Part shown: positions 6,523-45,797 of the stretch, one piece after another | Layout: each line of letters opens with the position of its first letter | How positions within the stretch are numbered: the stretch's first letter is position 1 | Origin: an uncultured bacterium | GTDB lineage: Bacteria > Babelota > Babeliae > Babelales > JACPOV01 | DNA: 45,797 nucleotides | Reading direction: 5' to 3' | Assembly (NCBI GenBank): GCA_963744715.1 | Contig: CAVUUR010000003.1 | Coordinates: forward strand, 1 to 45,797 | Made by a program: the position numbers and the translations under genes | Notes under the pieces: model-generated | Database searches by the model: none | What the model saw: the letters and a program-made list of their open reading frames with translations, nothing else | What the model was told of the DNA's origin: nothing

Positions 6523-9146
6523 GCGGCAACCCCTGCCATTTTATCCGGTACGAATTCAGTTAATGAACGTTGTTGTTTTTTCATTCTTTTTGTTTTTATT
6601 ATTGGTTTTTCCTGCGCTATTAAGTCTGTTTTTGCACGTGGTTCTTCTTTAATAGTGTCAGGAATGTTATCAGGTGGCGATGTTGATTCAGCGCCTTTCA
6701 CGGTAATTTCAGGATGCTGTATTACCTGATCGGGGTTACGTTGGCCGAAACTACAATACGTCACATCATCTTCCGGTATACAACTTGAATTGTTTTTGTA
6801 GAATACTGACTCACGTATATCATGATGTTCTGCTTGATATTTTTTATTAACAAAATTATCCACCTGTTCAACGTTTTCATTAGGATAATCTCTAAAAAAC
6901 CAACGATGAATAATATCCCGCTTTTCACTCTGGCAGCGCATTTCTTTCATTGTTTGTTTAGAAAATTCTGCCTTTTCACGTGAATAACCATCAAGACCGC
7001 CTTCAAGCTTCGGCTCAACGATGCGTGGCGAAATAAAGACTAATAAATTATCTTTTGATTTTATTTTGGTTTTATTTTTAAACAACCAACCAAAGATTGG
7101 AACATCTCCTAAAACGGGAACTTTGTTTGTTTGGTCAACTTCATTAGTTTGTAATAAGCCGCCCAATGCGAGTACTTGTTTATTACCAACGTTCGCGATA
7201 GTTTTAATGGTTTTTGTATTTTTCGTTGGACTTGTAGGATCAGTTGCACTTGTAAAAGCATCGATACTGATATTAATGGTAAGGTTAATATTCCCTTCAT
7301 TGTTAATCAAAGGGGTAATATTGACGGTTAAATTCGCCGAAATATCGCCAAAGGTATTTGATGTTAATTGTGATTGCACTTGTCCAGTCAGAACACGACG
7401 TGTTTCACCCATGGAAACTTGGGCAGTATAGTTATTGGTCGTTACTAAAAATGGATTCAAAATAAGGTCAGTATGAACGAGCGATTCCAATACTTTGAAA
7501 ATTCCCCATACACCATTTGCCATATCGGATATTGTTAATAACGCTGCACCAGGGCTTTGGTTCTGGGCTAACTGTATTAGATTAGCCACTAAACTGCCGG
7601 TAGTAGGATTAACAAGAGGGGATGCTGGAACACCGCCAAGTAATGGTAACCCCGAAGTTTGAAAATTAACGTTATCTGCATTACGAGGATTTTTATTGCG
7701 AAATTGTATACCCAGTTCACGATCATCATTTGAAAGAACGTTAACGATGAGCACCTCGATTGCTACTTGCGGTTGTTTTACATCCAATTGCTTAATCACT
7801 TCAAGAACTTTTAAATAATCTTCTTTTTCAGCATTGATAAGCAAGCGATTGCCCGATGGTTCAGCCTGAAAACTCATTGGTCTTAAATATTTATCACCAT
7901 CGCGTACGCCTCCACTTTGTGAGGCTGGTGACTCCGGAGCAAATTTAGTGACATTCGTTAAGATGGTGGCGATGTCCTCAGCTTTTGTGTATTGCAATTC
8001 ATAAATGTAGAGTGGGGAATAAGGAGTTTTTAATTCTGTATCCACGTAATTGATAATAAATTTTTCTATTTTATCAATACCTTCTTGAGTGCCTAGAATA
8101 ATGAGCGTATTAGTTCTACGTTCTGCAAACAATCGTAAATTATCAGGAAAATAAACTGATGTTGGTAATTTTTTTGTTCCTAATAATCGCGCTGCCAATC
8201 CTCTGGTATCTTCTGTTTTGGTTAAATTTTCGTAAAATGCTTTTACATCTTCAGCATCAGCATATTTTAGTTTTAGTACCGACATTACTTCGGGTAAACT
8301 AGATCCATCAAGTTCTTCCACCAGTTGCATGATAGAACGAATATTGAAGGATTTGTCGATAAGAATAAAAGCATTGAGGTCTTGCAATGATTTTAAAGAA
8401 GAGGTGGGGCTTCTGAATGCATCAACAAGACTTTGAATAGTGGCTAAACTACTATTTTTTACATAATACGCGTATCGAATTTTTTGTTCGTTATCCGGTA
8501 ATTCTTGCCAAGATACATTGATAAATGATGGCAATGGCGATCTGTTTGCCGAACGTGGCGCATTAGGATCTGTCGAGACTACTTTATAAAAATTGGACAT
8601 TGAACCTTGCACAAGGCTTAAGCCAAAGACATCAAGAAACGTAAGAAAAAGATCCCATGTTTGTTTTTTGGTTAATGGACTGTGTGTTTTAAAAGTTATT
8701 TTTCCGGTAACGGACTTCCCACCCTGTGGCAATGGATTAATGGCATCATCCGTAAGAAAAGTAACGGCAAAAATATCGGAAACCCATAGTAATAAATTTT
8801 GTATATCGGTATTGTCAAAATTAATTTCGACCATGTCATTTTGATCATCAGTGGCGGTTACTGGCCGTATATTTCTTTCTTCGGTTACCGTTTTTGTTGA
8901 TAGAAAATCTTTGTCAGGAATTTTATTTTCATAATTTGATGATTCATCTTTTTGAAAATGATCCGAAGGATGCGGATGCGGCAAAGGTTCGGTTAAAAAC
9001 TTTTCATCAAAATCTAGAGTATCTTTTTCTGTGTTTGCCGCAAACGTTGGGTAAAATAGCAATGAAGCTATGCTCAGTAAAAGAAAAAAAACGCGTTTAC
9101 TATTCATAGAATTACCCATATTAGTCTGGTTGAACATTACGTACAA
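6519..9146 (-). CDS. gspD: Type II secretion secretin, copy 1 (start may be 9107)
   Basis: INFDNTDI N0 start, LKYADAEDV and RTNTLIILG N domains, LDVKQPQVAIEVLIV, and LGGLL...KVPVLGDVPIFGWLFK...LLVFISPRIV. Confidence 0.92.
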   Translation of the reverse strand: MYVMFNQTNMGNSMNSKRVFFLLLSIASLLFYPTFAANTEKDTLDFDEKFLTEPLPHPHPSDHFQKDESSNYENKIPDKDFLSTKTVTEERNIRPVTATDDQNDMVEINFDNTDIQNLLLWVSDIFAVTFLTDDAINPLPQGGKSVTGKITFKTHSPLTKKQTWDLFLTFLDVFGLSLVQGSMSNFYKVVSTDPNAPRSANRSPLPSFINVSWQELPDNEQKIRYAYYVKNSSLATIQSLVDAFRSPTSSLKSLQDLNAFILIDKSFNIRSIMQLVEELDGSSLPEVMSVLKLKYADAEDVKAFYENLTKTEDTRGLAARLLGTKKLPTSVYFPDNLRLFAERRTNTLIILGTQEGIDKIEKFIINYVDTELKTPYSPLYIYELQYTKAEDIATILTNVTKFAPESPASQSGGVRDGDKYLRPMSFQAEPSGNRLLINAEKEDYLKVLEVIKQLDVKQPQVAIEVLIVNVLSNDDRELGIQFRNKNPRNADNVNFQTSGLPLLGGVPASPLVNPTTGSLVANLIQLAQNQSPGAALLTISDMANGVWGIFKVLESLVHTDLILNPFLVTTNNYTAQVSMGETRRVLTGQVQSQLTSNTFGDISANLTVNITPLINNEGNINLTINISIDAFTSATDPTSPTKNTKTIKTIANVGNKQVLALGGLLQTNEVDQTNKVPVLGDVPIFGWLFKNKTKIKSKDNLLVFISPRIVEPKLEGGLDGYSREKAEFSKQTMKEMRCQSEKRDIIHRWFFRDYPNENVEQVDNFVNKKYQAEHHDIRESVFYKNNSSCIPEDDVTYCSFGQRNPDQVIQHPEITVKGAESTSPPDNIPDTIKEEPRAKTDLIAQEKPIIKTKRMKKQQRSLTEFVPDKMAGVAA

Positions 9147-16195: not shown

Positions 16196-16301
16196 TGCAG
16201 AATTTAAGGTACAGTTTGCTTTCTTGCAAAAATCTTGTTATAACCTTCTGCATAAGTCTTGTTAATAAATGAACTCAATATGATATCGTGTGGAGAGTTA
16301 C

Positions 16302-17188
16302 ATGATTGATTTTCTTAAGTATCGATGGATATGTGGTCTTTTTTCGCTCAGCATTATGCTTTTGTTTGTAGGATTATATACCTACAAAAAGATAACCTAC
16401 GGACACGCATTTACCTACAGCGTTGAATTTACGGGCGGAACTCAACTTTTATTCGGATTTAACAAAAAAGTAAGCAGTAATCAATTGCTTGATATTCTTG
16501 CTGCTAATGGTTGGAGTGGCGCGAGTACGCGAGAATTTGCCAACAACGAAGTGTTGGTCAGAATTAAAGATTTTTCACATGATACAACAGCATTAGCTGA
16601 ACGTATTAAAACTATTATTATGCAACAAATTCCTGATCTATCAATTACTATATTGCAAGTTGATAGCATCGGGGAAGGGATGGCGCGGCTTTAAGTTGGA
16701 ATTCAATTAAAGCAGTGGTGTTGGGTCTTATATTAATGTTGATGTATATCGCTTGGCGCTTTTGGTCTTTTGCCTATGCAAGTGGTGCTATTGTAGCTCT
16801 TTTCCACGATGCCATTGTAATTTTGTTGTTTTTCTTATTATTCGATAAAGAAATTTCCATGAATGTGATTGGTGCAATAATGGCAGTTCTGGGATATTCA
16901 GTTAACGATACCATTGTTATTTTTTCGCGAATTCGTGAAAATTTAAAATCAATGCGTGGTGTATCTACAGACCAGGTTGTTAATATAAGTCTTAATCAAA
17001 CATTACGAAGAACTATATTAACCAGTGCATCAACAGGATTAGTGGTAATGGCACTTATTCTCTTAGGGGGAGAAGCTTTACGAGATTTATCATTGGCATT
17101 ATTTATAGGAATAGTATTTGGTACATATTCTTCCATTTATATTGCAAGCCCTGTTATGTTATTGCTATATAATAAAGAACAGAAGTAA
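16302..17188 (+). CDS. secF: Protein translocase subunit SecF (one frameshift near 16680)
   Basis: MIDFLKYR, VEFTGGT, ALFHDA, GYSVNDTIVIFSRIREN, QTLRRTILTS, GTYSSIYIASP. Confidence 0.9.
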
Positions 17189-17404
17189 AAAGCATTTCAT
17201 TGTTAATTAGTTGCTCAATGTTATAAACGTACTATAAAGATTATTCTTTATTGAAGTCTGTACGTTGTTTGTGTAAAAACTATCATTACGTATGTTTTTG
17301 TTACTTTTTTATTTTTCATGTGAAAGTTATTCGCGGTTAAGAGATGTTTAATTTTTTAATAATTGCTAACTACTATAAGGTTATTAGTAAGGAGATTTAT
17401 TGAT

Positions 17405-18710
17405 ATGACCTTAGATGAATTGCGACATATTAGCCTTATTGATTTAAATCATCAGGCTCGCAGGCTAGGCATTATTGGCGCTAGTTTAATGAATAAAGAA
17501 GAATTGATTAAAAAAATTCTTGAATTACAAGAAAATCCTGATAAAGAAATTGAAGTTGAAGGGGTCTTAGAAAAATTGCCAGATGGCTTTGGATTTTTAC
17601 GATCAGCGAAATTTGATTATGTTTCAGGACCAGATGATATTTATGTTTCCCCATCTCAAATTCGACGTTTTAATTTACGAACTGGTGATACTGTAACTGG
17701 TGTTATTCGAAAGCCAAAAGATGGTGAAAAATATTTTGCTCTTATTAAAAGTTAATAAAGTTAATTATGTCAAGATCCATGCAACGTTAGGTGATCGACT
17801 TAATTTTTGATCGTCTTACGCCATTGCATCCGGATAAAAAATTTAATCTTGGAATATGATCCTGCGTTTTATTTCAACCCGTATAATGGATATTTTTACT
17901 CCTATTGGTAAAGGGCAACGTGGTTTAATTGTTGCTCCGCCTAAAGCTGGTAAAACGGTACTTTTAAAAGAAATTGCACAAAGCTATTATTGCAAATCAT
18001 CCTGAAGTTTATTTGATTATATTGCTTAGTTGATGAACGTCCTGAAGAAGTTGCTGATATGCGGCGTATCAATTAAGGGCAAAAATGCTGAAGTTATCAG
18101 CTCTACTTTTGATGAATCAGCTGAGCGTCATGTGCAAGTTGCAGAAATTGTTCTTGAAAAAGCAAAACGATTAGTTGAAGTTGGCAAAGATGTGGTTATT
18201 TTGCTTGATTCTATTACTCGTCTTGCACGTGCATATAACACAACTGCTCCTGCTTCAGGAAAAGTATTAACTGGTGGTATTGATGCTAATGCTTTGCAAC
18301 GACCAAAACGATTTTTTGGTGCTGCGCGTAATACCGAAGAAGGTGGTTCATTAACTATTATTGCAACTGCACTGATCGAAACTGGTTCGCGTATGGATGA
18401 AGTAATTTATGAAGAATTTAAAGGTACTGGTAATATGGAAATGCATTTGAGTCGTAAACTTTCTAATCGACGTGTGTTTCCTGCCTTTGATCTGCTTGTT
18501 TCTGGTACTCGTCGTGAAGAATTATTGCTTCCCGAAGATGAGCTTAATAAATCATGGGTATTGCATAAATTCTTATCAACCATGAATACCGTAGAAGGTA
18601 TGGAATTTCTTATCGATAAGATGAAAAAACATAAAACAAATGAAGAATTTTTTGAATCTATTCAAAAAAAGAGTGGTGAATCTAAAAACGATAGCTCTAA
18701 TGGTAACTAA
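17405..18710 (+). CDS. rho: Transcription termination factor Rho (several frameshifts in ~17750-18075)
   Basis: [89 protein letters not shown] lies before 17405. Confidence 0.95.
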
Positions 18711-22310: not shown

Positions 22311-22741
22311 GGGGGCGCCAAGGCTTCGACGTAGTATATAATACTCAAGAAGCATGCCAAGTTTCGGCTGAGAACTTGTAAAAAAGCAGTCAAAACAAGA
22401 AATGCAAACACTAATAGTGTTGGATCAAGAATAGAGAACGCTGTAGCTACTTTAGCTAACCGTGTTTCTGCTTTCACAGGACAAGGCGCAGTTGCTTTTG
22501 CGTAATTATTTTTGATTTCTTGTCAGCAAAACCTGCCTATTGGTTGAACTGACTCGTAGTACAAAAGATAGGACGGTTCTTTTAGATCTCTTAGGGTTGT
22601 ATAAGAAACGTAGCACTACCCTGATTCATATTCATGATCACTGTTTTCGAGGAAGAGTATGAATATATTCGAAGACTAAGCATGTAGCGTTTTAAGTACT
22701 TTATAGTGCGGACATGGGTTCGATTCCCATCGCCTCCACCA
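22311..22741 (+). ncRNA. ssrA: tmRNA, 431 nt; tag frame 22404-22505 encodes ANTNSVGSRIENAVATLANRVSAFTGQGAVAFA
   Basis: 5' end GGGGGCG..AGGCTTCGAC. 3' end has the T-arm ATGGG-TTCGATT-CCCAT followed by CGCCTCC-ACCA, forming an Ala acceptor stem with G3:U. It lies downstream of smpB, and the tag starts AN and ends AFA-stop. Confidence 0.95.
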
Positions 22742-29260: not shown

Positions 29261-31480
29261 ATGAGTATGCACAAAATACGTATTGGTGTTTTAATGGGAG
29301 GAAAATCAGGAGAGCGAGAAGTATCGTTTAATTCTGGCAGAACGGTGTGCGATCATCTTGATACAATGCGTTATGCTATTATTCCATTGTATCAAACCAC
29401 TGATGGAAATCTTTTTGTGTTGCCATGGTCATTTTTGCATCGTGGAAAAACAAGTGATTTTGAGCAGCGTCTTGTTTGCCAAGCGCAGCAGATTATGTGG
29501 GATGATCTAAAAAATTTAATTGATTGTGTGTATATTGCTATGCATGGGCAATATGCAGAAGATGGAACGGTGCAAGGCATTTTTGAGCTTTTAAAAATTC
29601 CATACGTAGGTTCAAAAGTTTTTGCTAGTGCATTGGGTATGGATAAAATTATGCAAAAAAAATTCATGCGGATGCATACCATTAACGTGCCCAACTATGT
29701 AGTGGTGAATCCTGTTGATATTGAAGAAGATAATATTGCTCTCATCCTTGAACGTATGCACGATAATAAAATTACATTTCCCTGCATAGTAAAACCAGGC
29801 AATGAAGGCTCAAGTTTGGGAGTATCAATTGCTGCTAACTGTGATGAATTATATCTGGCATTGATGCGCGCCTGCTATGAAGGTGCAATAAGACCGCGTA
29901 AGGTACTAATTGAAGAAAAAATTAAAGGAATGGAATTTTCGTGCATTGTATTAACTGATTATCGCACCAATACCTTATTGCCATTACCACCCACTGAAAT
30001 TATTGCGGATGAAAGTATCGGTTTTTTTGATTATGACCAAAAATATATGCCCGGAAAATCATTACAAATTACGCCGGCGCGTTGTTTACAACAAGATATT
30101 GAACGAATTCAAGAAACGTGTGTTAAGGTTATGCATTGTTTAGAGTTCACCAATCTTGGGCGCATTGATGGATTTTTAACCGACGGCGGAGATATTATTA
30201 TTATTGATCCCAATAGTTTTGCTGGTGCAGCACCCGCAAGTTTTTTATTTAAACAGGCTGCTCAGATTGGGATGAACCATACTGCGTTAATTAATTATCT
30301 TATCCAAACGGAATTACATTATTATGGCATGACACCTATGATAGAAAAAGATTTTGATACACAAGAACAAAAGAGTGCAGGAAAAATTCGCGTTGCCGTG
30401 TTATTGGGAGGCTCTTCTAATGAAAAAGAAATATCATTAGAATCAGGCAGAAATGTGCTCTATAAATTATCACCGCATAAATATGAACCGATAGCTATTT
30501 TTGTTACCGATTCATTACAGTTATTTCGCATTGATGAACGAATACTATTATCAAGTTCCACGAGTGTGATTGAACAAGAAATAACGAATGAAATGCAAAT
30601 TAAATGGAGCGATCTACCAACTATTGCTGATTTCGTTTTTATTGCATTACATGGTGGCCAAGGAGAAAATGGTTGCGTGCAAGGAATGTTAGAAATGCTT
30701 AACCTTCCTTATAACGGTTCATCAGTGTTGACCAGTGCATTGTGCATGGATAAATATAAAACAAATTCGTTACTCGCAATGAACGGTTTTGATGTTCCTG
30801 CAAATATGCTTGTTAACTTGCAAGAGTTGCATAATCCAACCGAATTATTAAATCAAATAGAGGATACTTTTATTTTTCCTATTATTATTAAACCGCATGA
30901 TGATGGCTGCAGTGTGCTGGTACATAAAGTAATGGATAAAGCAGAAGTTCTTCCGATTTTGCAAAAATTTGTGCTTGAAAAAAAACAGTATGCGTTGATT
31001 GAAGAATGTATACGGGGCACGGAATTGACGGTTGGTGTGCTTGGTAATGAGAATCCGGTTGCATTGCCGCCAAGCCAAGTAATGGTACAAGGTGCCATAC
31101 TTTCTATTGAAGAAAAGTTTTTACCAGGTGCTGGAGAAAATCAAACACCAGCATTATTGCCACCACAAACTATTACGTTAATTCAAAAAACTATCGAATC
31201 GGTGTATGCCATCGTTAATTGCAAAGGCTATGCACGCATTGATTGCTTTTATCAATCAGCTGAACAAAGCCCTACCAATAAAGAACGAATTATTATTATT
31301 GAAATTAATACACTGCCGGGATTAACACCAGCAACCTGTATTTTTCATCAAGCGGCAGAAATTGGATTAAAACCCATGGATTTTATTGACCTAATTATCG
31401 AATATGGTTTTAAAGAACATCTGCATATACGTTCAAATAATTATCAAGAACAAGTATCAACGATGCTCATTAATGGCTAA
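29261..31480 (+). CDS. D-Ala-D-Ala ligase family protein with two complete ATP-grasp ligase domains
   Basis: Two full motif sets: GGKSGEREVS/MHG..EDG/MDK/KP..EGSS/RID and GGSSNEKEIS/LHG..ENG/MDK/KP..DGCS/RID/EINTLPG. Confidence 0.9.
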   Translation: MSMHKIRIGVLMGGKSGEREVSFNSGRTVCDHLDTMRYAIIPLYQTTDGNLFVLPWSFLHRGKTSDFEQRLVCQAQQIMWDDLKNLIDCVYIAMHGQYAEDGTVQGIFELLKIPYVGSKVFASALGMDKIMQKKFMRMHTINVPNYVVVNPVDIEEDNIALILERMHDNKITFPCIVKPGNEGSSLGVSIAANCDELYLALMRACYEGAIRPRKVLIEEKIKGMEFSCIVLTDYRTNTLLPLPPTEIIADESIGFFDYDQKYMPGKSLQITPARCLQQDIERIQETCVKVMHCLEFTNLGRIDGFLTDGGDIIIIDPNSFAGAAPASFLFKQAAQIGMNHTALINYLIQTELHYYGMTPMIEKDFDTQEQKSAGKIRVAVLLGGSSNEKEISLESGRNVLYKLSPHKYEPIAIFVTDSLQLFRIDERILLSSSTSVIEQEITNEMQIKWSDLPTIADFVFIALHGGQGENGCVQGMLEMLNLPYNGSSVLTSALCMDKYKTNSLLAMNGFDVPANMLVNLQELHNPTELLNQIEDTFIFPIIIKPHDDGCSVLVHKVMDKAEVLPILQKFVLEKKQYALIEECIRGTELTVGVLGNENPVALPPSQVMVQGAILSIEEKFLPGAGENQTPALLPPQTITLIQKTIESVYAIVNCKGYARIDCFYQSAEQSPTNKERIIIIEINTLPGLTPATCIFHQAAEIGLKPMDFIDLIIEYGFKEHLHIRSNNYQEQVSTMLING

Positions 31481-36078: not shown

Positions 36079-37212
36079 TCACTGATCACCAGGGACAGTA
36101 TCATCTTCTTGGCTTGAACGCTGAAGCGCTTCAATAAGTTGTTTCTTAGTTGCGGGAGCATCTTGCCATATAATTTTACCGTTCTTAAAGAGTAAGAAAT
36201 AGGGAACGCGCGCAATATTAAAATGTTCAATAATTTCTAACGCATCGTCATGTTCTGCTTGTAACGTAATATGAGTATCTGCATGTTGGTTGGCTAATGC
36301 TTGTACAATCGGTTGCATAGACCTACAACTCGGGCACATTGGAGCATGCATATAAAGAAGTACAAATTTGCCATCGGCAGTTTGAAGAATCTTTTGAAGT
36401 TCACTAAGAGATTTTATGGTCTTAATGTTTGATGTTTCAGTTTTTTGAACATGGAAGAATTTTGGCTCTAATTGTTTGGCGTTATCGGGGTTGAGGCCTA
36501 CGTTTTCAAGAAATGTAATAACATCCATGGCGGCCTTTATGCCGCTTCCTGCTGCGACACCAGATTTTCCATACGGTTTATCTGCAACAGAAACTATACC
36601 AGCAGCGTAAAATCCCGGTATTATGGTTCGTTGTGTGTTGCATTGCACGACAATATAGCCATCTTTATCAGTTTTTATCACCGAATTAACCAAATCAGAA
36701 TTGGGATGATAACCAATGGCAAAATAGACGGCATTAAGAGGGATGGTTGATTTTTCACCCGTTTTATTATTGATAATGTCAATCTTGGTTACCGTTTTGT
36801 TGTTTCCTTCAATGCTTACTATTTCAGTATTGTATAAAATTTTTATATTTTCAGCCGATTTTAAATATTTTTGTACCGTTGCAATAGCATCAAGCTCAGA
36901 TTCTCGTACAATCATTAAAACACTTTTTGCATAGGCAGATAATTGCAATGCGCGTTCGGCGCTGGTGTCACCGCCACCAACAACAGCAACATCTTGCCCT
37001 TTATTAAAGGGGGCATCGCAAATGGTGCAAATGCCTATTCCTTTTCCCCAGTATTGATCGACGCCGGGAACCATTAATTTTTTGGGGATTCCGCCAGTAG
37101 CGAAAACAATTGATAACGGATGAAGCTGAAGTTCATTTTCCGTTACTACGGTAAAAGGCCATGAATTCAAATCAACCTTTACCGCGGTATCATAGATAAC
37201 TGGAATCGACAT
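36079..37212 (-). CDS. trxB: Thioredoxin reductase-thioredoxin fusion, 5'-truncated at the junction
   Basis: FATG, GKGIGICTICD, VVGGGDTS, FAIGYHPNS, GFYAAG, then a thioredoxin domain (APMCPSC...VPYFLLFKNGK). The N-terminal FAD-binding GxGxxG region is absent, and an in-frame stop lies 3 codons upstream. Confidence 0.85.
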   Translation of the reverse strand: MSIPVIYDTAVKVDLNSWPFTVVTENELQLHPLSIVFATGGIPKKLMVPGVDQYWGKGIGICTICDAPFNKGQDVAVVGGGDTSAERALQLSAYAKSVLMIVRESELDAIATVQKYLKSAENIKILYNTEIVSIEGNNKTVTKIDIINNKTGEKSTIPLNAVYFAIGYHPNSDLVNSVIKTDKDGYIVVQCNTQRTIIPGFYAAGIVSVADKPYGKSGVAAGSGIKAAMDVITFLENVGLNPDNAKQLEPKFFHVQKTETSNIKTIKSLSELQKILQTADGKFVLLYMHAPMCPSCRSMQPIVQALANQHADTHITLQAEHDDALEIIEHFNIARVPYFLLFKNGKIIWQDAPATKKQLIEALQRSSQEDDTVPGDQ

Positions 37213-37264
37213 TGGGTGCTATGTAGTATTAACAGATTATTTTTTTTTTCGGCCTTTCGGGATT

Positions 37265-37420
37265 TTAGCGCCCCGAGGTAATCTGGAGGGTCGCCCCGGG
37301 TCTCTTGGTGACTTGCTGGTATTTGCTTGCAATATCGCTACCGAGTTGTGCGAGTTTGGCTGTCTCATGTACCACGTGTTTTACAGAGTCAAACATTGTT
37401 GCTATACTATCCATGGACAT
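37265..37420 (-). CDS. 51-aa protein downstream of the minor capsid gene (not in the ORF track)
   Basis: MSMDSIATMFDSVKHVVHETAKLAQLGSDIASKYQQVTKRPGATLQITSGR. It starts 2 nt after the upstream stop and exactly fills the gap. Confidence 0.55.
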   Translation of the reverse strand: MSMDSIATMFDSVKHVVHETAKLAQLGSDIASKYQQVTKRPGATLQITSGR

Positions 37421-37422
37421 TA

Positions 37423-38280
37423 TTATTTTTTAGCCTTGCACTTCTTTTCGGATTTCTTAAGACTTTCCATAATCGCTTTGCGCCGCTCCAGTGCAATACA
37501 CTGTAAAAAAGTTTGGTTCAACGTCTCCAAGGCAGCGAGAATATCCACCTCCATATCTTGCACGGTCTCTACGGCGACGCTGCAGTACCAGTACGAATTG
37601 AGCGTGAGTGGTGTGCTGGATGCATTTGTGAGGGAGAAGTCCAGACTCTGTAGGTTTCTCCTCTGCCTATCAATGACAGCATACTCCCCAGTTGGGTCGG
37701 TAAAATTGAGCGTCTCATAGGGTTGTGCAAGGTTTGCAATCTGGCACAAAATCTGCGAGTGCGTCGTATCTCCACGGATGACTTCATAGTGCGACGTTGG
37801 AAGATTACTAATCACGTTGATGACATCGTGCTGCGCCAATAAGATTGTCCGAGGGTGGCATGAACCCCTCGGTGATTGTATAGGTCTGCCCCTGGACAAA
37901 CCCCAGGAGAGACGCACACGAGTTGGTGCTTGTAAAATCCAAGGCATAGAAGTGTCTGTATGGAACACAAGGAAATTGCTCTCACTCTACGTGCACACGA
38001 CACCATACGTGCTCAAGTCTGTGATAATGTCCTCGATGGTCGGTTTCCCCTGCTGCAAGTTGATGACCACCCCATCTTTGACAAGCACATTACAGGCGGC
38101 ATTGAGTGTCCAATCATTTATCAAGACGATATTGTTCACCCAGATACGGAAATACACATTTGGGTTGTTCAATTGGAATGACGTGGGCTCAAGCAACATA
38201 CGAAAATACGAGGGGTTGCTGTTCATAGTGATAGTGTCGTGTGAGTTGAAATACACAAAGTTTCTCTGCAGCACTCGCAT
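37423..38280 (-). CDS. Minor capsid (penton) protein, single jelly-roll type, interrupted
   Basis: N-terminal FVYFNS...PSYF...INDWTLN..CN...INLQQGKPTIEDI, a central SLLGF in a shifted frame, and C-terminal INVISNL...SQILCQI...PYETLNF...LDFSLTN...LTLNSYWYCSVAVE. One in-frame TAG at 37987-89 joins the two track ORFs. Confidence 0.7.
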
Positions 38281-38314
38281 CTACTATACGGGTAGATTTT
38301 TATACGAGGGATTC

Positions 38315-38953
38315 TCAAGGATGCTGCTCAAGTGTGAGGGTGGTACATCGGTCCGTTTGGCAGTTGTTGATCTTGCCCTGTAAATCGTCTAAAGATTTGC
38401 GAGACACTGAGGCGTTGGCAGCGGATGGAACGGACAAATATCCATCAACAGACAATCGCATAGTCTCGTCATCCTCTGTAATATTATTAAAGTTTCGAAT
38501 GAAAACCATTGCCCCTATTGTCTCTTGTAACTCGTTGAAGGATAGGAATTAAGCAAGTACGCTTTCCCCTGAAAGACCATATACAATTGTAGCGCTTTCC
38601 CACTGAGCGTCTTGTCCCAGATGGGCGACAGGAGGTTCTCTATACGCTTGGGCATCTTATCTGTGGTCTTTTTGTTGAGCAAGTTTTCGCTCCCTGCAAA
38701 GTTCATATCTGTGAAATGGGCTATTACGGACCGTTTTATCCTTGCCGATACATGCATAATTCCATCCCTCCACATGGTTACCTATCGGGTATAAACTCTT
38801 AAGAACCATCCCCCCCTTGACAGGTAGGATAATTATGTTATTATTTTTAGCATTTTCGTAAATGTGTCCGTACCCGTCATCTGCCGTTTGAACGTTACGA
38901 CAGCACGTGAAACCTTTAAAATTGAAAGAAAAAATTGAGCCAATCAATGACAT
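38315..38953 (-). CDS. PAS-fold-like protein, split by about two frameshifts
   Basis: The reassembled sequence ENLLNKKTTDKMP...IWDKTLSGKALQLYMVFQGKAYLLNSYP-NELQETIGAMVFIRNF follows the PAS/PAC pattern. Confidence 0.5.
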
Positions 38954-39004
38954 AGTATATTGCGATATTGCGCAAGTTTTATGTCATGGAGATGATATAA
39001 CACA

Positions 39005-39448
39005 ATGGACTATCTACTACGGGACAAGATACATGGGTTGAAACGCTACGGCAAATTTCACGAGGCAATTGATTACCTGCTGGAGACCTTTCCAGACATG
39101 GGTGAAGAGTGCAAGGACGAATTGATTGGTATGAAGATGGCAGAGGCGGTTCAAACAGCGTTTGCCGAGAAATATCCCCAGAGTGCTTCTGCCTACCGTA
39201 AGCGCCTGCATGATGACATCGAGGCTATCCACAACGAGATACACGTGTTGGAAAAGGATAAAGCCAGTATCGAGGAGGACATCGAATATTTGGAAGGAGA
39301 GTTGCACAGACTGCAAGACGTGGAGGAGAAGCCAGTGAGACCCAAAAAGCCCCGAGCACCCCGAAGAAAAAAGGGGTCGAGGTGCAGACACAAACGGACT
39401 AGCCAAGTTTTCCCACAACCAATTCTGCGAGGTCGTTGGTGGTTTTAG
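39005..39448 (+). CDS. Coiled-coil protein with basic tail
   Basis: Acidic heptad stretch followed by KPVRPKKPRAPRRKK (NLS-like). TATAACACA precedes ATG. The 3' end is uncertain because it overlaps the convergent ORF. Confidence 0.65.
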   Translation: MDYLLRDKIHGLKRYGKFHEAIDYLLETFPDMGEECKDELIGMKMAEAVQTAFAEKYPQSASAYRKRLHDDIEAIHNEIHVLEKDKASIEEDIEYLEGELHRLQDVEEKPVRPKKPRAPRRKKGSRCRHKRTSQVFPQPILRGRWWF

Positions 39449-39623
39449 AGACCTGTTCTGGTGTGATATATCCCAAAGTCCCCAAGATGGTTTTAATTTT
39501 CTCAAAGGCTATCAAGATGTGGTCGTATTTCTCCTTGTGGCATACAATTTCCTGTTGCTTTAAGATAAGCACAATTTTGATTTCCGTTTTATCATAACCA
39601 CTTGTAAAGTTGATGTGTTCCAT
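39399..39623 (-). CDS. Small hypothetical protein (74 aa)
   Basis: MEHINFTSGYDK...VVGKLG. AATATACA precedes ATG, and it follows the MTase stop. Confidence 0.55.
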   Translation of the reverse strand: MEHINFTSGYDKTEIKIVLILKQQEIVCHKEKYDHILIAFEKIKTILGTLGYITPEQVSKTTNDLAELVVGKLG

Positions 39624-39652
39624 TGTATATTGTATGGTACGTAAAAAAAAAA

Positions 39653-40369
39653 TCACATTTGAACGTGTGTAAGCCCCTCAACTCAGCAACGTTGAAGTAG
39701 CTATCGTTCATTTCAATACCACAAATTCTCTCTTTGTGTTGAAAGACGCTTCTCCCGTTGAGCCCGACCCCATTGTGAAATCCAATACAGTTTCGCCTTC
39801 GTTGGAATAGGTCTTGACAATCCATTCCAACATGTCTACTGGTTTTTGGGTCCCATGCAACCTCCCCCTTTCAGGAGGTCTATTAAACTCTATGATAGTA
39901 GTAGGATGACGTGTTCAAAGTTTCCCGTATCAACATTTTAACTTTCGTGAATATAGGTCAGATCGAATAGTCGTAACAGATTTCCTCTCCGGCCTTGGAG
40001 GATGCCCACTGACGAGTTTGTGGGTTATAGGTCGTGGGCGTCTTGTAGAAAATGTACACATGTTCATGAATCCGTAGCGGCATTTTGTTGGCATTTAGAA
40101 AGCCTGTGGGTTTTTGCTTACGCCATACTAAATCGTATCTATACCACGAAGGGTTCGAGTTTGTCAGCATCACCCCCAACTTAAAGTTGCCAAACATAGC
40201 AGCACGTGTCTTTGCACACCCGTTTCAATTCCGCCCACATCTTTTCCAAGTCGATAGGTATATCCCATTTACAACTCGTACACCCATACGGCAGGTCAAC
40301 CACGATGAAATCCATGCTCTTCTCATCAAGCATTGGCAGCACATCAAAACAGTTGCCTTTATAGAGCAT
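39653..40369 (-). CDS. N4/N6 DNA methyltransferase, beta class, frameshifted
   Basis: LYKGNCFDVL, motif IV DLPY, YDLVWRK, HEHVYIFYK, HGTQKPVDMLEWIVKTYSNEGETVLDFTMGSGSTG, GIEMN. Confidence 0.88.
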
Positions 40370-40429
40370 TATAGAAGTATCGCAAGTATTTATTCATCAT
40401 CCCAATAAACGGGCTCTGCATACCCGTCA

Positions 40430-40724
40430 TCAACAGGCTCGGGGATTGTGTTGGACGGACAGCGATCTTACCCACGTATGGCGTGCTAAGCGGACTGTCC
40501 GGTGACTCTCATCGGTGTGCCTTGTCCCCGTCTTTGCCTTGGAAATTGCGGCCCGTGCTTCTGGAGTATGTGTACCCAACCGATATTTCGGCCGTCCTAT
40601 CAACTTTTGGCGTATTTTCGGTGGCCTCCGTCTGATGCGTTCCCAGACGGCCATTTCCACGTCCCTTTTTAGCAGCGGACATTTTCTGCCGTGTCTCGAG
40701 CGTATGTTTTTCACCTTTGCGCAT
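40430..40724 (-). CDS. NUMOD3-repeat DNA-binding protein without nuclease domain (one frameshift)
   Basis: KHTLETRQKMSAAKKG, THQTEAT-KIRQKLIG, HTPEARAAISKAKTG, RHTDES. Confidence 0.7.
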
Positions 40725-40758
40725 TGGTATCATCACGCAACCAAAAAATCCTACAATT

Positions 40759-40946
40759 TTAACACACACCAGTTCCAAAAACATACACGCTATCATCCCA
40801 TACTACCAAGTCCCCATCCACGTTGATTTTGGTCGTCTTCATCAGTGAGCATTTTGTTGAATTTTTCATTCGCCTCATGACTCGAACTGTACGCTTTGTT
40901 GAATATCTGCACTGTCCCATCATAATTTTATGGACGCTGTGTTCAT
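40759..40946 (-). CDS. Small protein, paralog B (frameshifted)
   Basis: Reassembled MNTASIK-YDGTVQIFNKAYSSSHEANEKFNKMLTDEDD-KINVDGDLVVWDD. TAATG overlap with the upstream gene. Confidence 0.5.
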
Positions 40947-41201
40947 TATATCCTGACCTCCAGATACAATTCGTGAGGTATAACTGCGCATACACGTACA
41001 GGAACGATGGGGTTGTTTGTCTTGTGAACTTTGTATAATCCATACACCTTGTCCCCGTCAATATGTATCTTAGGGTCATCTGCATCTGTAAGCATCCTTT
41101 TTATTTTCTCATACGCTTTCATAACATCGTCATACTCCTCGGTACAACACCGTTTCGACAGCTCCTGATTGCCCCAGATACGTCAGTTTAAGTGTTGCCA
41201 T
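40946..41201 (-). CDS. Small protein, paralog A (frameshifted)
   Basis: Reassembled MATLKLTYLGQSGAVETVLY-EEYDDVMKAYEKIKRMLTDADDPKIHIDGDKVYGLY...LEVRI. Confidence 0.5.
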
Positions 41202-41235
41202 TATACTATGAGAAACCAAAAAAATCCTACCTATT

Positions 41236-41408
41236 TTAACACGCCATCTCAGCAATTCTCCTGAGCAGTCTCTTGCTTGCACACCAAATAACGTGGATTG
41301 CTGATACAGGTTCTCCAACAGCGCTGAATGACCCGTGCCTGAGGAAAAAAACGTGTGCCTCCAAAACCGCTGGATGGTTGTAGTATTCTTGTTCATAGCC
41401 CCCATCAT
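41236..41408 (-). CDS. Small protein with two IQ-like motifs (frameshifted)
   Basis: TTIQRFWR followed, in a shifted frame, by ARVIQRCWRTCISNPRYLVCK. Confidence 0.5.
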
Positions 41409-41436
41409 ATGGCGTCGAGAGGTTCTGTTGGATTTT

Positions 41437-41682
41437 TTATGTACAATACTGCGCAAGAGGCACGGTGGCAGTCCACACGGGCAATTGGTGTTCGGCATGG
41501 AACCATTCCATACAACACGCAACACACGTGTATGGTGTATCGTCTGGGAGCTCGTGAAATATAAACAGGTTGTTTTTCCCTGAACAGTTGAAACATTGGC
41601 GGAGAGGCCTGCACGTGATAGTTTCCACAGTGCCTACACTCACGTCAACAATTGTATTGCTGTGAAAATATTCAGTGCGCAT
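41437..41682 (-). CDS. Small CxxC...CxxC zinc-binding protein (81 aa)
   Basis: CFNC...CVAC. ATG 41682 lies 39 nt after the shared GTGTTAAAAT motif. Confidence 0.55.
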   Translation of the reverse strand: MRTEYFHSNTIVDVSVGTVETITCRPLRQCFNCSGKNNLFIFHELPDDTPYTCVACCMEWFHAEHQLPVWTATVPLAQYCT

Positions 41683-42170
41683 ATGATGTATGGGATGGAA
41701 AAATGTGTGTGATTTTAACACACGCCCTCTTTAAGTCCCTTCAAACCCAGTGCAACCTGAACACGCCAACGCCAACTTCCCCCAATTTCGGCCCTGCCCT
41801 TTGTTCCGTCCGGTGCACACCCCAACGTGGACTCCAAACACCCACGTATCCTACACGTGACTCACCCACGCCTTGGGAAGGCGAGATGAACATCTGGGAA
41901 ACGTGGCATGGCGTGGTTTGGTGTGGCGTGGCGGAGATGGTGTGTGGATGTCCCCGGGCTCGTTTCTGGCTCTGCCCGATGGGTGTGTCTGGTCAGTCTG
42001 GGCAAAAAATATAGCAACTCTAAAAAGAAATACGGAAGTAAAAATGAAATCCGAGTGAGACCCACGCATTCTTAAAGTGGGATTGTGGAAAAGTTGGGAA
42101 TTTGTCGATTGCGGGTTCGTGGGGAGCATGGCGTGGTTTGGCGCATGGTTGCGCATGGCATGGTTGGTTA

Positions 42171-42230
42171 CGGGAAGGTGCGGGAAGGTGCGTGGAGGTG
42201 CGGGAAGGTGCGGGAAGGTGCGTGAAGGTG
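42171..42230. repeat. Six tandem 10-mers (CGGGAAGGTG with variants)
   Basis: cgggaaggtg cgggaaggtg cgtggaggtg cgggaaggtg cgggaaggtg cgtgaaggtg. Confidence 0.95.
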
Positions 42231-42482
42231 GCAGATGGCTTTGCGGCGCGCACGATTTCTGGCGGAACTAAATCTTTAAGTGGGTTTTCACAGGCGTTTT
42301 GCCGTAGGTGTGATCATTCTGGTGGTTTTAGAGAGGTCTAAATTCTTTCTTTAAGTGGGTTTTAGACGCTGGTCTTGGTTCGCAAACGGTTTGGCACGGC
42401 TTTATTACCCACTTAAAGACGATTTATGTAGGGCTAATGGGGTTGCTCTATTATTTACCCCTGGTGATGACGTCATCTGTCT

Positions 42483-42527
42483 TGATTATAGGATGATAAT
42501 AGTATGATAATAGGGTGATAATAGACT
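42483..42527. repeat. Four tandem 11-mers TGATwATAGnn at the candidate element terminus
   Basis: tgattatagga tgataatagta tgataataggg tgataatagac t. Confidence 0.9.
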
Positions 42528-45500
42528 TATTGTGTTCTTTTATTGAATAAATGTGTAACATGCAAGTTGTCTTTTTGAGAGTTTGTGACTTCAACTTGGT
42601 CTGAGGGTTTGAGGTACTTGGGTCACACTACCATGTGGATGAGCAGGCTTTTTCCTGAGGGCCATACCACTTGGGTCACTTCCCTGAGCGTTGAGGTACT
42701 TGAGATACTATCCAGCATGGTCCTTGAGTCTGCTTCACTGTTATTACTTGTGCATTGAAAATGTAATCAACCAACGGGAAGGGTGTTGTAATCCTGTGCA
42801 CTCAATATGCGGTGGACACACTTGCTGATGACACCTAATAATTTAATATACAAGCCAGGCACCCATTGGAAGAAGGACACTGTACATGCAAACACACACA
42901 GCGTTGGATAGGATTGCTGTGCAACACAGGCAAAAAAATACACATGCGGGTCAGGAACCTATGCCTCGGCTGTGAGACCTGAACAAAATTGATAAAACAG
43001 CGCTATAAGAAAAAAGAATAGGCCTTGCCAAATACGACGTAAAAATTGATCATGTTTTCACATTCAAAGACTGCCGCTATAGTCACTTAATTTCACCTTA
43101 TAGTTGGGGCCAGTTAGACAAAAATAGCTTGTTAGGGACCCCAGGGGTGCACTTCGTTCATTATCACCATGCATTGTTTAGTCGTTCGTTATAGGTTGAC
43201 AGTAATCAGTCAGGAGCTTGGAAACAAGATTCCAGGCAAAAAATAGATGAGTTTTTAGTTTACAATTATAACGCCACATCGTGGCTATGCTGCCGGTCAC
43301 TTGTTTCAGCTCACATCACGAAAATGTCATTTGCTAGGGATAACATCAAGTATGCTTCATGCCGGCAGACACAATCTCAATGATGCTAAGCCCTGGGCAC
43401 AGCAGCAGTCAGAATGGCGGCCCAGGGGGTGTCTCCCAGAAGAGAGGCTTTGGGGCAAAGGAATTGGAGGGGGTGGAGAAGACGATAAAGGCTACCACGG
43501 CAGAGACCGACTAGTATATGGATGGGGCTACTTGAGATATATTGGATGAGGCTACTTTGCTCTTATTTATAAGCTTTGTTCTTTCGTTGAAGGAACTCCA
43601 ATTGCTGAAGGGCTGTCATATCACCCCATTTGATGCGGTCGTGTAACTGGACTTTCCTTTGAATTCTTTTCGGACGAGGACCTGATTTCATGTTGTCCAC
43701 GACCAATCTCCATCTTCTTCAACGAACACCTACAGCAGGGCTGGAGACGAAGGGGCATGACTATCTGTTCTGTTCGACAAAGATGCAAAATAATACTTCA
43801 AACCCACCTTTTCTGGTTTGACGTCTATATAAAAAACTGTTCTTTTGTTCATTGGTGGTCGCATTTTTTTTTAATATGAAAATATTAACGTTACGCTCCG
43901 AGTATAACTAGGGTGTATAATTTTAAAGTAAATTTCTGTGAAACCACAATAGCAGCGGCTAAAAATTCCATACACTTATCTACCCAAGTTGCCAGCATTA
44001 TTGCGTTACTTTGGCAACTTGGATTTATCACCTAAACATAGAGCGTAGTGACTATGTACACATATTGATGTATGCTTTTCTCTTCATGCAAAGGTGCAAA
44101 AAAATGTAATGGGCAAAATGCAATCATTACTCCTGAAGAACTGGTTTTGCATCAGTTGGTAACAGCGTCAACAATTTAGGCAACTCTTAACACTTGTGGT
44201 CATGCGTCCCAAATCTCAAGGAGACATAAGTGGTCCAGTTTCGAGTGTACGTAGATGGGAAATATGCACAATACTTACACACATTCACAATTCCAAAACG
44301 CTGCCCTGTTGATTCCCCTACATTTTCCATCGATGCTTAAGAAATACTACGGGCTCAGAAGGGGACTATATACGGTAGCATGCACTTATCAAGTGTTGGG
44401 GCTGGATCCCCTATTATCCACCAAAGCTCTAGGCAGTATCTAGTAATATTATGGCAAACCACGAAGGCGTCTTAGAATTCAAAACGTCCCAAAGGCCAAA
44501 TTTACGTTCAAATGCACAATTTTTGAGTTATTTTTAATCATGACAGTGCCTCCCTTCACTTTTAGGGAAGGCTGCTACTGGATTACCTGGATTCCTACAG
44601 TCCCCCCTAGCTACATGGTTGTCAGAGAACTGTCGCAGGCCGTGGAAAAAGTACTTCTACTATCTACGTAGCCCAAGCATGTTGGGGAATGAAAACGCGC
44701 CCATGAGAAAAACATCGCAATCTCCATCACAAACGGCACAGGCTCCAATAGCTGTCGCGTGGCTCGCTTGACTCCACCTCAGTCCCGACCTGCATCAAAA
44801 TCAATCACGCCGATTCAAGTTTTTGCATCAAAGGGTAGAAGGTACCTTGCACAATAGGATTTGATGTTTAAAATCCTTTGCCTTACTTGCGTATTGTAGG
44901 TCGCACAAACAATGGCAACGTACCCTGTGGCCGCCATAAAATCTAACAAACCATCGTCGATCGCTAATCCGTTATGTCCCAGGTGCCACTCACTAAGCGC
45001 TGGAGCATATGCCCGGGCCAAAAAGTATGTACCCTGGCTACATTAATTTAGCCACAGTTGAGCCAAGTACACAAATTGAAAAGTGTGTACTTGGCCACAG
45101 AGCGCATTTCCACATCAGCTCAGCTACAATGGGCCAGAAGCACAGCAACAAATTGTGCTACATACATTATCAAGGACATCACTCAGAATTAAGTATTGCC
45201 GCCGACTGAATCTACTTAGACCGCACTGACCATCGTCATAACAGGATTAAAAGGGCACGCGTCTTGCACAGCCAGGGTTGGGTTACTCAGCAGATCCCCG
45301 CGTGTCTAAATTGTAGTTTAGCCGGCCGCACTGACAAAGGCGAATTCGAGGACAGAAGTGCTGGTGGGACCAGACCATGTGGCGGGGAACACGCATTTGC
45401 CAGCCAGGAAGAGACAGGAACCCGTTCGAAAATCTCAGAACCAACCCAAGTGTTTCAAAATGTCCAAACATCTGCTCGTGTTGAATCCCTTGTTCTTAGT

Positions 45501-45797
45501 AACTCCTGGTCGTGACGGAACCAAAAGAAAAAAATCAAAAATAAGGATTTTTGGCAAAGCGCATACGCCTATAGACAGTGCTGCCTTGGTTTTTTTTACT
45601 GGGCCATGCCAGTTTACTGCATCCCACGTTTAACCCAAAGCCTGCATTCATCCTGCCATCTAGGAGGCAGGAGGACTACATGTCAAACAACAATAGAATT
45701 GATTTCCCCCACTGCTATCAATCACAGCTGCATAAGTTGGTCTCCACAATTGTGCCATCTGGGATGGGCGCTTGGGCGGTATCTCGCCTCCCAAACA
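42528..45797. other. Gene-poor DNA, probably eukaryotic host flank
   Basis: No ORF above 91 aa and none recognisable over 3.2 kb. It contains scattered short repeats and hairpins. Confidence 0.5.

Follow-up and report, generated by a model that had tools for sequence, protein, structure and literature searches.

Probable end of a Polinton-like virus on an unpolished, probably chimeric tail of a Babeliales contig

The penton fold is common to giant viruses and adomaviruses, and the termini of Polintons end in CT. Virophages such as mavirus and Sputnik are reported to integrate in protist genomes. Polinton-like viruses (PLVs; Aquintoviricetes etc.), exemplified by Tetraselmis viridis virus S1 (TVS1), TsV and PgVV/Gezel, are given a genome range of 14–40 kb in one account (PMC12220804), while another reports methyltransferases (MTases) in about half of PLVs and virophages and states that PLVs can have zinc fingers (PMC9356565). 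The locus described here resembles PLVs in its ~285-aa penton, with the best TM score to TVS1-type proteins, and in its accessory MTase, long terminal non-coding stretch, 18–25 kb homolog contigs and probable integration. It differs in that the penton has no family-level match in Pfam, and in being a fragment that carries no major capsid protein (MCP), ATPase or integrase gene.

The window, i.e. the whole analysed stretch of 45,797 nt, is contig C3 of a Dependentiae/Babeliales metagenome-assembled genome (MAG), which is a species-representative genome. Three compositional regimes are found along it. Behind the bacterial DNA lie about 9 small broken genes, then a repeat-rich stretch of ~830 nt and a CpG-poor one of 3.3 kb, both of them non-coding. 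The composition switches near position 37250 (Markov model), with the GC content rising from 35.5% to 45% across the bacterial/viral boundary, and the CpG o/e is 0.90 in the element compared to 0.62 in 42528–45797. The first-pass annotation had described a compact array of about 11 small genes after the bacterial DNA, mostly on the minus strand, with ~800 nt of repeat-rich non-coding DNA behind it. This description agrees with ours, as we count 9 gene units (37237–41682), within the frameshift ambiguity of the earlier number, 8 of them on the minus strand. It had also placed the major capsid, packaging ATPase, polymerase and integrase genes outside the window, and none was recognised within it. 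The claimed lack of Shine-Dalgarno sites holds for 6 of the 9 starts and is weakened by matches of 3 nt at two others and 4 nt at one. This evidence is soft, since a Shine-Dalgarno match of at least 4 nt was present at only 3 of the 18 bacterial starts that were tested.

We consider it likely, with a probability of about 0.72, that the window contains a PLV end on an unpolished long-read tail joined to a Babeliales contig. The join would have cut the bacterial trxB gene, and the tail would consist of one ~5.3-kb PLV end (penton, accessory genes and terminal non-coding repeat), then eukaryote-type DNA, probably of the host chromosome. The intact element might span ~18–25 kb, with genes for the major capsid protein, the A32 ATPase, replication and integration lying past the cut; in the whole MAG, neither Pfam Pox_A32 nor the one distant candidate MCP query gave a match, the element being cut at the junction. 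Its DNA would be packaged in an icosahedral double-jelly-roll capsid with the penton at the vertices, and the element may alternate between a protist-integrated state and free virions, possibly in dependence on a giant virus. Within this reading, the PLV-type assignment itself, made from the ~5.3-kb end with its penton and accessory genes, is probable. The penton fold, the MTase, the NUMOD3 protein and the 18–25 kb homolog contigs bear out the earlier proposal of a Polinton-like or virophage end, in the form of the end of a small eukaryotic Polinton-like DNA virus, most likely an additional member of a known group of viruses of single-celled eukaryotes. An origin from a tailed phage or prophage was rejected: for the 21 proteins compared, PHROGs matches were confined to the MTase, the NUMOD-type protein and two weakly matching families, the best 10 of 35 phage BLASTN records all match the MTase only, and the structural gene is a penton. 

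The repeat-rich end region (41700–42527) is a candidate terminal inverted repeat. It contains tandem arrays (period 10 × 6, period 11 × 3.8 and period 5 × 6.4) and a 13-bp perfect inverted repeat (42348/42407), has a fold z of −2.6, and ends in CT at 42527. A second copy was not found in the MAG, and the bacterial/viral junction (37201–37236) has no repeat partner of this stretch. The following non-coding, CpG-depleted DNA (42528–45797) is, by its composition, probably a eukaryotic flank, or else another piece of the chimera. Its CpG/GpC ratio is reduced (Fisher p 2.5e-4), with the drop in the segment starting at 42437, and the change point of the palindrome rate lies at 42247–44397. It is gene-poor, as had been noted: none of 70 stop-free frames of at least 33 aa matches Pfam, the longest frame (103 aa) is reached in length by 113 of 200 shuffles, and no Rfam match was found. 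These features suggest that the region is more probably true host DNA than not, as a putative eukaryotic flank, and that an endogenous state of the viral element is plausible. The PLV end could instead come from a free genome, with the 3.3 kb after 42527 being a third, unrelated fragment of a multi-part chimeric read. We regard this as a lesser possibility. Several contigs of the assembly have chimeric ends, the small contig C8 has mixed GC, the flank has no identifiable gene, and chimeras from three or more sources are described as not uncommon (10.1101/2025.04.22.649783). However, the CpG drop near 42437 directly follows the repeat-rich end, as expected of a real virus–host boundary, and joins made at random would be expected to fall within coding DNA more often, like the one at 37201–37236.

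The region 37423–38280 (minus strand) encodes a penton (minor capsid protein) of ~285 aa, with a single jelly-roll and an insertion domain. An in-frame stop interrupts the gene, as do two frameshifts that compensate each other. The intact homologs P0003 and P0004 are 45% and 43% identical to it over the full length, or 51–52% in a frameshift-aware comparison, and the fold was assessed on P0004, whose model has a pLDDT of 83.8. In Foldseek, the comparison that the first-pass annotation had proposed, the P0004 model matches the mavirus penton as the best solved structure (E 7.8e-9) and TVS1 protein M4QZG2 in BFVD (E 2.4e-13, TM 0.61), which confirms the penton gene that it had predicted. An alignment against PDB sequences returned only unrelated weak matches. 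The longest homolog contigs measure 18.2, 18.2, 19.5 and 25.1 kb, within the 14–40 kb PLV range; many others are short, and two reach 52.7 and 61 kb. No close relative was confirmed in IMG/VR, JGI metagenomes or GTDB, an absence that is weak since these scans need near-exact peptide words. The PLV-like penton family has few sampled relatives (~15 proteins), to which this locus adds one more partial member, and the 18–25 kb contigs would be the place to define the lineage.

The penton also raises the alternative that the fragment terminates a genome, endogenous or free, of giant-virus (Nucleocytoviricota) or Mriyavirus/Zora-like type. The top VIA match is PBCV-1 capsid chain 8h2i_bG (Z 15.0, rmsd 11.5, 261 aligned residues), ahead of the mavirus penton (Z 12.2, rmsd 8.2, 223 aligned). 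Many of the BFVD matches are giant-virus proteins, among which a Pyramimonas orientalis virus protein ranks equal to TVS1, and most of the ESM Atlas neighbours carry the label Nucleocytoviricota, a labelling that rests on few members. Additionally, NCLDV-related groups of PLV size exist (10.64898/2026.06.19.733378), and copies of AAAATTGA (see below) are present. Against this, the closest penton homologs lie on contigs that cluster at 18–25 kb when long, and the 5.3 kb contain no recognisable giant-virus core gene. We consider a giant-virus end unlikely and retain the PLV assignment.

The N6-adenine/N4-cytosine DNA MTase (39670–40369, minus strand; ~235 aa) is split by 4–5 breaks. One piece matches Pfam N6_N4_Mtase (E 7.2e-13), three pieces match PHROGs, and, with frameshifts allowed, the protein is 43–52% identical to three intact viral MTases over ~230 aa, in agreement with its earlier designation. 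Among the 80 viral loci kept of 595 matches, the best is on L011, a PLV-type contig (recombinase and ATPase), and the fourth-best on L086, another PLV-type contig, from IMG/VR (A32 ATPase, E 3.8e-13, and a penton), with near-tied scores for PLV-type and other loci (234, 230, 220 and 216 bits); the PLV-type markers come from those two contigs themselves. L086 and our element have the MTase subfamily in common, and their pentons are homologous (20% identity, hhalign probability 91). L086 also avoids palindromes strongly and has a small basic ORF (73 aa) at the corresponding position directly behind its penton. It differs in that the penton is distant, the other genes are unshared and the avoided words are different. 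Its 459-aa ORF, a tentative MCP candidate, gave a single close relative and nothing in the PDB. Adjacent to the MTase is a NUMOD3-repeat protein of ~100 aa in two frames (40430–40724, minus strand), with one Pfam NUMOD3 match passing the cut-off (E 5.1e-6) and one missing it (E 0.0013). A nuclease domain was not detected in it, as expected of the NUMOD3-only protein described before.

The element avoids the palindromes GATC, CGCG, AGCT and CTAG, unlike the flank. GATC occurs 4 times versus 18.5 and CGCG once versus 11.2, with 0 of 300 simulations in each case. The MTase and the avoidance of these words would most likely protect against restriction enzymes met in co-infection. Palindrome avoidance beside an MTase fits such pressure, an idea that is not new; a limited literature search returned nothing relevant on palindrome avoidance in virophages.

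The remaining genes are mostly ORFans. A frameshifted small basic protein of ~60 aa (37237–37420, minus strand) is possibly a core or cement protein, by analogy with the basic ORF of L086, to which its similarity is undetectable (E 6.1). The ORFan at 38315–38809 (minus strand; ~165 aa in three frames) bears at most a tentative resemblance to PAS. Its separate pieces have no Pfam or PDB-sequence match; they gave 23 candidate homologs, none significant, and no homologs of greater length. A marginal IMG/VR match (E 3e-4) was discarded as it fell to E 0.10 on re-test, and a single-sequence model of the middle piece was uninformative (pLDDT 57). A limited literature search found no report of PAS in a PLV or virophage. 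It is improbable, taken together, that the DNA, although artefactually joined, comes from the very protist hosting the bacterium and that the element represents a PLV lineage not yet classified, whose penton gene has a separate PAS-like sensor gene beside it. The only plus-strand gene (39005–39448) encodes a putative coiled-coil protein of ~135–147 aa with a basic tail; its coiled-coil matches in Pfam and PHROGs are all sub-threshold. Two copies of AAAATTGA lie upstream of it (38918–38938, plus strand), matching the core of the giant-virus early promoter (10.1101/2022.07.28.501842). The element contains 3 copies compared to 0.43 expected (5 of 500 simulations reach 3), an enrichment that is weak because two further copies lie in the flank. 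A 74-aa ORFan (39399–39623, minus strand) has a short motif in common with an ORFan of ~135 aa in several frames (40793–41201, minus strand), with 10 of 20 residues identical (pairwise E 1e-5) and a DNA repeat, D3, of 72%. The latter contains an internally repeated motif and has no family match in Pfam or PHROGs.

The outermost gene (41236–41682, minus strand) encodes a Cys-rich ORFan whose C-terminus bears an IQR-like motif, in which a zinc finger and IQ had been seen by eye; it has no Pfam or PHROGs match and no IMG/VR relative. No tool (Pfam, PHROGs, PDB sequences or IMG/VR) supported the PAS, IQ and zinc-finger labels of the first-pass annotation. Its view of the cargo as unusual is likewise not supported, MTases and zinc fingers being already reported in these groups. 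An upstream motif, GTGTTAAAAT (40743–41721, minus strand), has exact copies at 40756, 41233 and 41712, each preceding a different one of the three outermost genes by 20–35 nt, and none in the rest of the window. It is probably a promoter, judging from its placement and its frequency (0.018 expected; 0 of 500 simulations reach 3, for a motif picked after seeing the data). Four IMG/VR contigs matched the promoter pattern and were set aside, as none was related by tblastx.

The fragmentation of the genes matches read error in unpolished contig tails. There are 3 breaks in 855 nt in the penton gene and 4–5 in 700 nt in the MTase gene (3.5–7 per kb), compared to 4.2, 11.3 and 9.8 per kb in three bacterial genes in the tail of contig C6 of the same assembly and none in two bacterial genes of the window; some bacterial genes of the window are also split. 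As ordinary bacterial genes in the C6 tail are as frameshifted, we ascribe the breaks to read errors. An old, decayed endogenous copy would account for the in-frame stop of the penton gene and for breaks away from homopolymers, but it is a rather improbable origin, since the C6-tail genes break at an equal or higher rate and the element, unlike the flank, has retained its CpG content (0.90), still avoids palindromes and carries exact copies of the promoter. Two more specific causes were rejected, namely homopolymer errors (longest run 1–3 at all breaks) and TAG reassignment (a single TAG, most breaks being indels).

The likeness to virophages lies in the penton fold and in their known integration. 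The end of a virophage (Virophaviricetes) is nevertheless quite improbable, even with the mavirus penton as the best solved-structure match and an Atlas cluster scoring 0.94 in which Sputnik V18/19 accounts for 52% of the members: TM scores are 0.38–0.41 to mavirus and 0.35 to Sputnik, compared to 0.56–0.64 to TVS1, Pyramimonas virus and adomavirus proteins, a lower similarity than to PLV/NCLDV-type pentons, and the Pfam V18-19 profile matches 0 of 10 family members. Maverick-Polintons (Polintoviricetes) share the penton fold (adintovirus and MELD-virus matches) and the CT end at 42527, with weaker structural scores; a single element end is present here, in which neither pPolB, RVE integrase and maturation protease genes nor paired terminal inverted repeats and a target-site duplication are seen.

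On the bacterial side, a TrxB–thioredoxin fusion gene (36079–37212, minus strand) has its 5′ end cut off, as indicated by Pfam and by orthologue lengths. The Pyr_redox_2 match begins at profile position 74, the open frame has 379 aa compared to 459–503 aa in the six best orthologues, and homology stops at 37200 (orthologue residues 116–128), a loss of ~115–125 N-terminal residues; a search of the rest of the MAG did not recover the missing piece. The junction, from the last TrxB-homologous codon to the stop of the first viral gene (37201–37236), is a probable chimeric join. We are highly confident that it is an artefact, a long-read chimera, because contigs C2 and C6 also carry foreign tails (that of C6 matches Alphaproteobacteria), C6 and C10 have fold-back ends, none of nine family relatives of the bacterium carries the penton, and frameshifts are alike in another tail. 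The viral stretch is most likely not part of the bacterium and was glued on in sequencing or assembly, an almost certain artefact that the earlier reading had overlooked, together with the match of the fragmentation to read error. True insertion of virus and eukaryotic DNA into the chromosome is very improbable: Babelota are described as living strictly inside protist cells, and other TrxB paralogues in the MAG could make the loss tolerable, but the join lies inside trxB as well as inside the virus, with no terminal repeat, bacterial DNA never resumes, the error density jumps at the join, and neither the foreign ends of other contigs nor the penton-free relatives fit it. If the join were real, the bacterium would carry in its chromosome part of the genome of its protist host, with an endogenous PLV in it; a viral element would then have passed from a eukaryote to a bacterium, and the host would be named by it. 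Multi-domain chimeric contigs in long-read metagenome assemblies are described as having abrupt GC and taxonomy shifts at cross-domain joins (10.1101/2025.04.22.649783), a likeness judged here from the assembled sequence. Such a chimera in a species-representative bacterial genome leaves viral and eukaryotic DNA open to misreading as bacterial genes.

The viral element at ~37237–42527 likely works as a Polinton-like virus (PLV), and we put its membership in that group at about 80%, on the strength of one core gene out of three. Its genes include those for a vertex protein, a DNA methyltransferase (MTase) and a protein with DNA-binding repeats, and some upstream motifs are shared. The first-pass annotation had reported a compact array of small genes after the bacterial DNA, and this array is indeed present, consisting of nine gene units past 37236 (GC 45%), eight of them on the minus strand. 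A lack of Shine-Dalgarno sites had also been noted; six of the nine starts are without any match, but this absence says little because bacterial starts are also weak (a match of at least 4 nt at 3 of 18 tested). As described earlier, the array is followed by a repeat-rich non-coding stretch of ~830 nt that includes tandem arrays and a 13-bp inverted repeat, and then by 3.3 kb without recognizable genes. In this 3.3-kb stretch, 0 of 70 frames match Pfam, Rfam gives no match, and the longest frame is ordinary compared with shuffles. A perfect 12-bp palindrome is located at 42466–42477 in the terminal non-coding stretch, just ahead of an 11-bp tandem array.

The protein encoded at 37423–38280 has two intact full-length homologs (43–45% identity). 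A wider search brought in 17 proteins and a later profile search five more; three wider-search proteins resembling repeat-driven chance matches and five longer forms were left out of the alignments. The structure of the intact homolog P0004, which stands in for the window gene, was modeled using 10 sequences (pLDDT 83.8). Among solved structures, the model best matches the mavirus penton (E 7.8e-9), followed by the vertex proteins of PBCV-1, adenovirus and Sputnik. The best named matches among predicted viral structures are from Tetraselmis viridis virus S1 (E 2.4e-13, TM 0.61), Pyramimonas orientalis virus (TM 0.63) and adomavirus (LO5, TM 0.64). VIA-align superposed the model onto PBCV-1 and mavirus chains with Z-scores of 15.0 (rmsd 11.5, 261 aligned), 13.2 (rmsd 3.5, 149 aligned) and 12.2 (rmsd 8.2, 223 aligned), and the first non-viral fold follows at Z 7.0. 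Therefore, the modeled fold identifies the 37423–38280 product as a penton of eukaryotic jelly-roll viruses, in agreement with the original assignment. The penton fold by itself does not tell PLVs from giant viruses, and the labels of penton neighbours in the Atlas are mostly Nucleocytoviricota. Penton homologs are carried by contigs of 18.2, 18.2, 19.5 and 25.1 kb; other such contigs are shorter, and two are longer at 52.7 and 61 kb. PLV genomes are given as 14–40 kb in one report (PMC12220804).

Pfam and PHROGs confirm the MTase (39670–40369) and the NUMOD3 repeats (40430–40724) proposed earlier. The PAS, IQ and zinc-finger labels, in contrast, were backed by none of the approaches used (Pfam, PHROGs, PDB, homolog searches and folding of the pieces) and remain by-eye resemblances only. 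[quoted passage not shown]

From 595 MTase matches, 80 viral loci were kept and ranked by summed score. Among these 80, PLV-type loci take ranks 1 (L011, where an MTase is accompanied by genes for a small ATPase and a tyrosine recombinase) and 4 (L086, an IMG/VR contig on which an A32 ATPase gene, a lipase-like gene and a penton gene were recognised). This ranking backs the PLV reading in a supportive role only, because the scores are near-tied with those of other loci and the markers were drawn from L011 and L086 themselves. L011 (IMGVR_UViG_GVMAG-M-3300006802-11_000001) is filed under a giant-virus MAG and looks PLV-like. After the penton, L086 has first a small basic ORF and next a 459-aa ORF, which we take to be the major capsid protein (MCP); database searches gave no support for this assignment. 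The window likewise has a small basic ORF after the penton, with no detectable similarity to that of L086, and the junction comes next. By analogy, the MCP may have come next in the uncut virus. L086 and a second viral contig, L098, form a PLV-type pair with candidate capsid proteins that are 89% identical.

The window holds three exact copies of GTGTTAAAAT, located immediately ahead of the three outermost genes, one copy per gene; this count was reached in 0 of 500 simulations, for a motif picked after the fact. AAAATTGA, the core of a giant-virus early promoter that PgVV uses as well (10.1101/2022.07.28.501842), has two copies ahead of the plus-strand gene. It is a weak promoter signal here because copies are also present within the penton gene (one) and in the flank at 42528–45797 (two). 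Additionally, of 12 words tested, four are rare in the element: GATC (4 observed vs 18.5 expected), CGCG (1 vs 11.2), AGCT (3 vs 10.9) and CTAG (1 vs 7.1), with counts as low in 0, 0, 2 and 4 of 300 simulations, respectively. Avoidance of these four words is absent from the flank and from a bacterial control, and similar avoidance is seen in several other MTase-bearing viral loci. L086 contains zero GATC, TCGA and GTAC. Methylation and palindrome loss would probably guard against restriction during co-infection. As inferred from known PLVs (10.64898/2026.06.19.733378), the intact genome would span 18–25 kb, an A32 ATPase would package it into a double-jelly-roll capsid, and the element would integrate in a protist, possibly relying on a giant virus.

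The element is a low-quality fragment of a known virus type, preserved in a chimeric contig, and the fragmentation of its genes is read error. Over 855 nt, the penton gene has three breaks (one stop, two frameshifts), and the MTase gene has 4–5 over 700 nt. Three ordinary bacterial genes in the foreign tail of contig C6 from the same MAG show 4.2, 11.3 and 9.8 breaks per kb, and two bacterial genes of the window show none. The contrast is not clean: the viral breaks lie outside homopolymers, and some further bacterial genes of the window look split by eye. These enolase-, SecF- and Rho-like genes (623–1909, 16290–17188 and 17363–18710) probably contain indel errors.

The left junction, between bacterium and virus, is almost certainly an artefact. 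At 37201–37236 it interrupts a TrxB-thioredoxin gene, with TrxB homology stopping at 37200; the six best orthologues have frames of 459–503 aa, and a search of the MAG did not recover the missing 5' part. The junction also cuts the virus internally, and the terminal stretch has no copy there. The penton is present in 0 of 9 family relatives. Foreign tails are found elsewhere in the MAG, at the end of C2 (~1.5 kb, 61–66% GC) and the start of C6 (1–3500, ~3.5 kb, 63–69% GC), the latter matching Azospirillaceae at 68–69% over 71% of its length, and the ends of C6 and C10 carry fold-backs of ~3 kb (91.7% and 94.5% identity). Cross-domain chimeras are documented for long-read assemblies (10.1101/2025.04.22.649783). 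The C6 tail is an alphaproteobacterial fabG/glycosyltransferase/oxidoreductase cluster rich in frameshifts, and two small contigs, C1 (3.3 kb, 61% GC) and C8 (5.4 kb, mixed GC), also appear not to belong to the 35% GC genome.

Across the right-hand boundary, CpG frequency declines from 0.90 of expectation in the element to 0.62 in the flank (CpG/GpC p 2.5e-4). The drop begins near 42437, and the shift in palindrome rate is located between 42247 and 44397. Non-coding, CpG-poor DNA is characteristic of a methylated eukaryotic chromosome. Since the flank looks eukaryotic in this respect and the change comes directly after the repeat-rich end, a virus-host boundary is somewhat favoured, and a second chimeric join is less likely. 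The exact end was tentatively placed at 42527 on the terminal dinucleotide of Polintons.

The window is the entire contig C3 of a 1.26-Mb MAG (12 contigs, 86% complete), and its bacterial bases (1–37200) have a GC content of 35.5%. A scan with the ThyX gene yielded 36 loci (56–74% identity), where the top locus and the majority of those with a taxonomic name belong to Dependentiae/Babeliales/TM6, and five are labelled uncultured Pseudomonadota. Dependentiae/Babeliales reportedly live strictly inside protist cells (PMC12172432, PMC6561590). By eye, the bacterial part also contains a type II secretion-like cluster with two secretin (GspD-like) genes (1883–4333 and 6519–9146) and a 739-aa ORF (29261–31480) resembling a tandem pair of D-alanine-D-alanine ligase domains. 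A tmRNA directly follows an SmpB-like gene (22311–22741).
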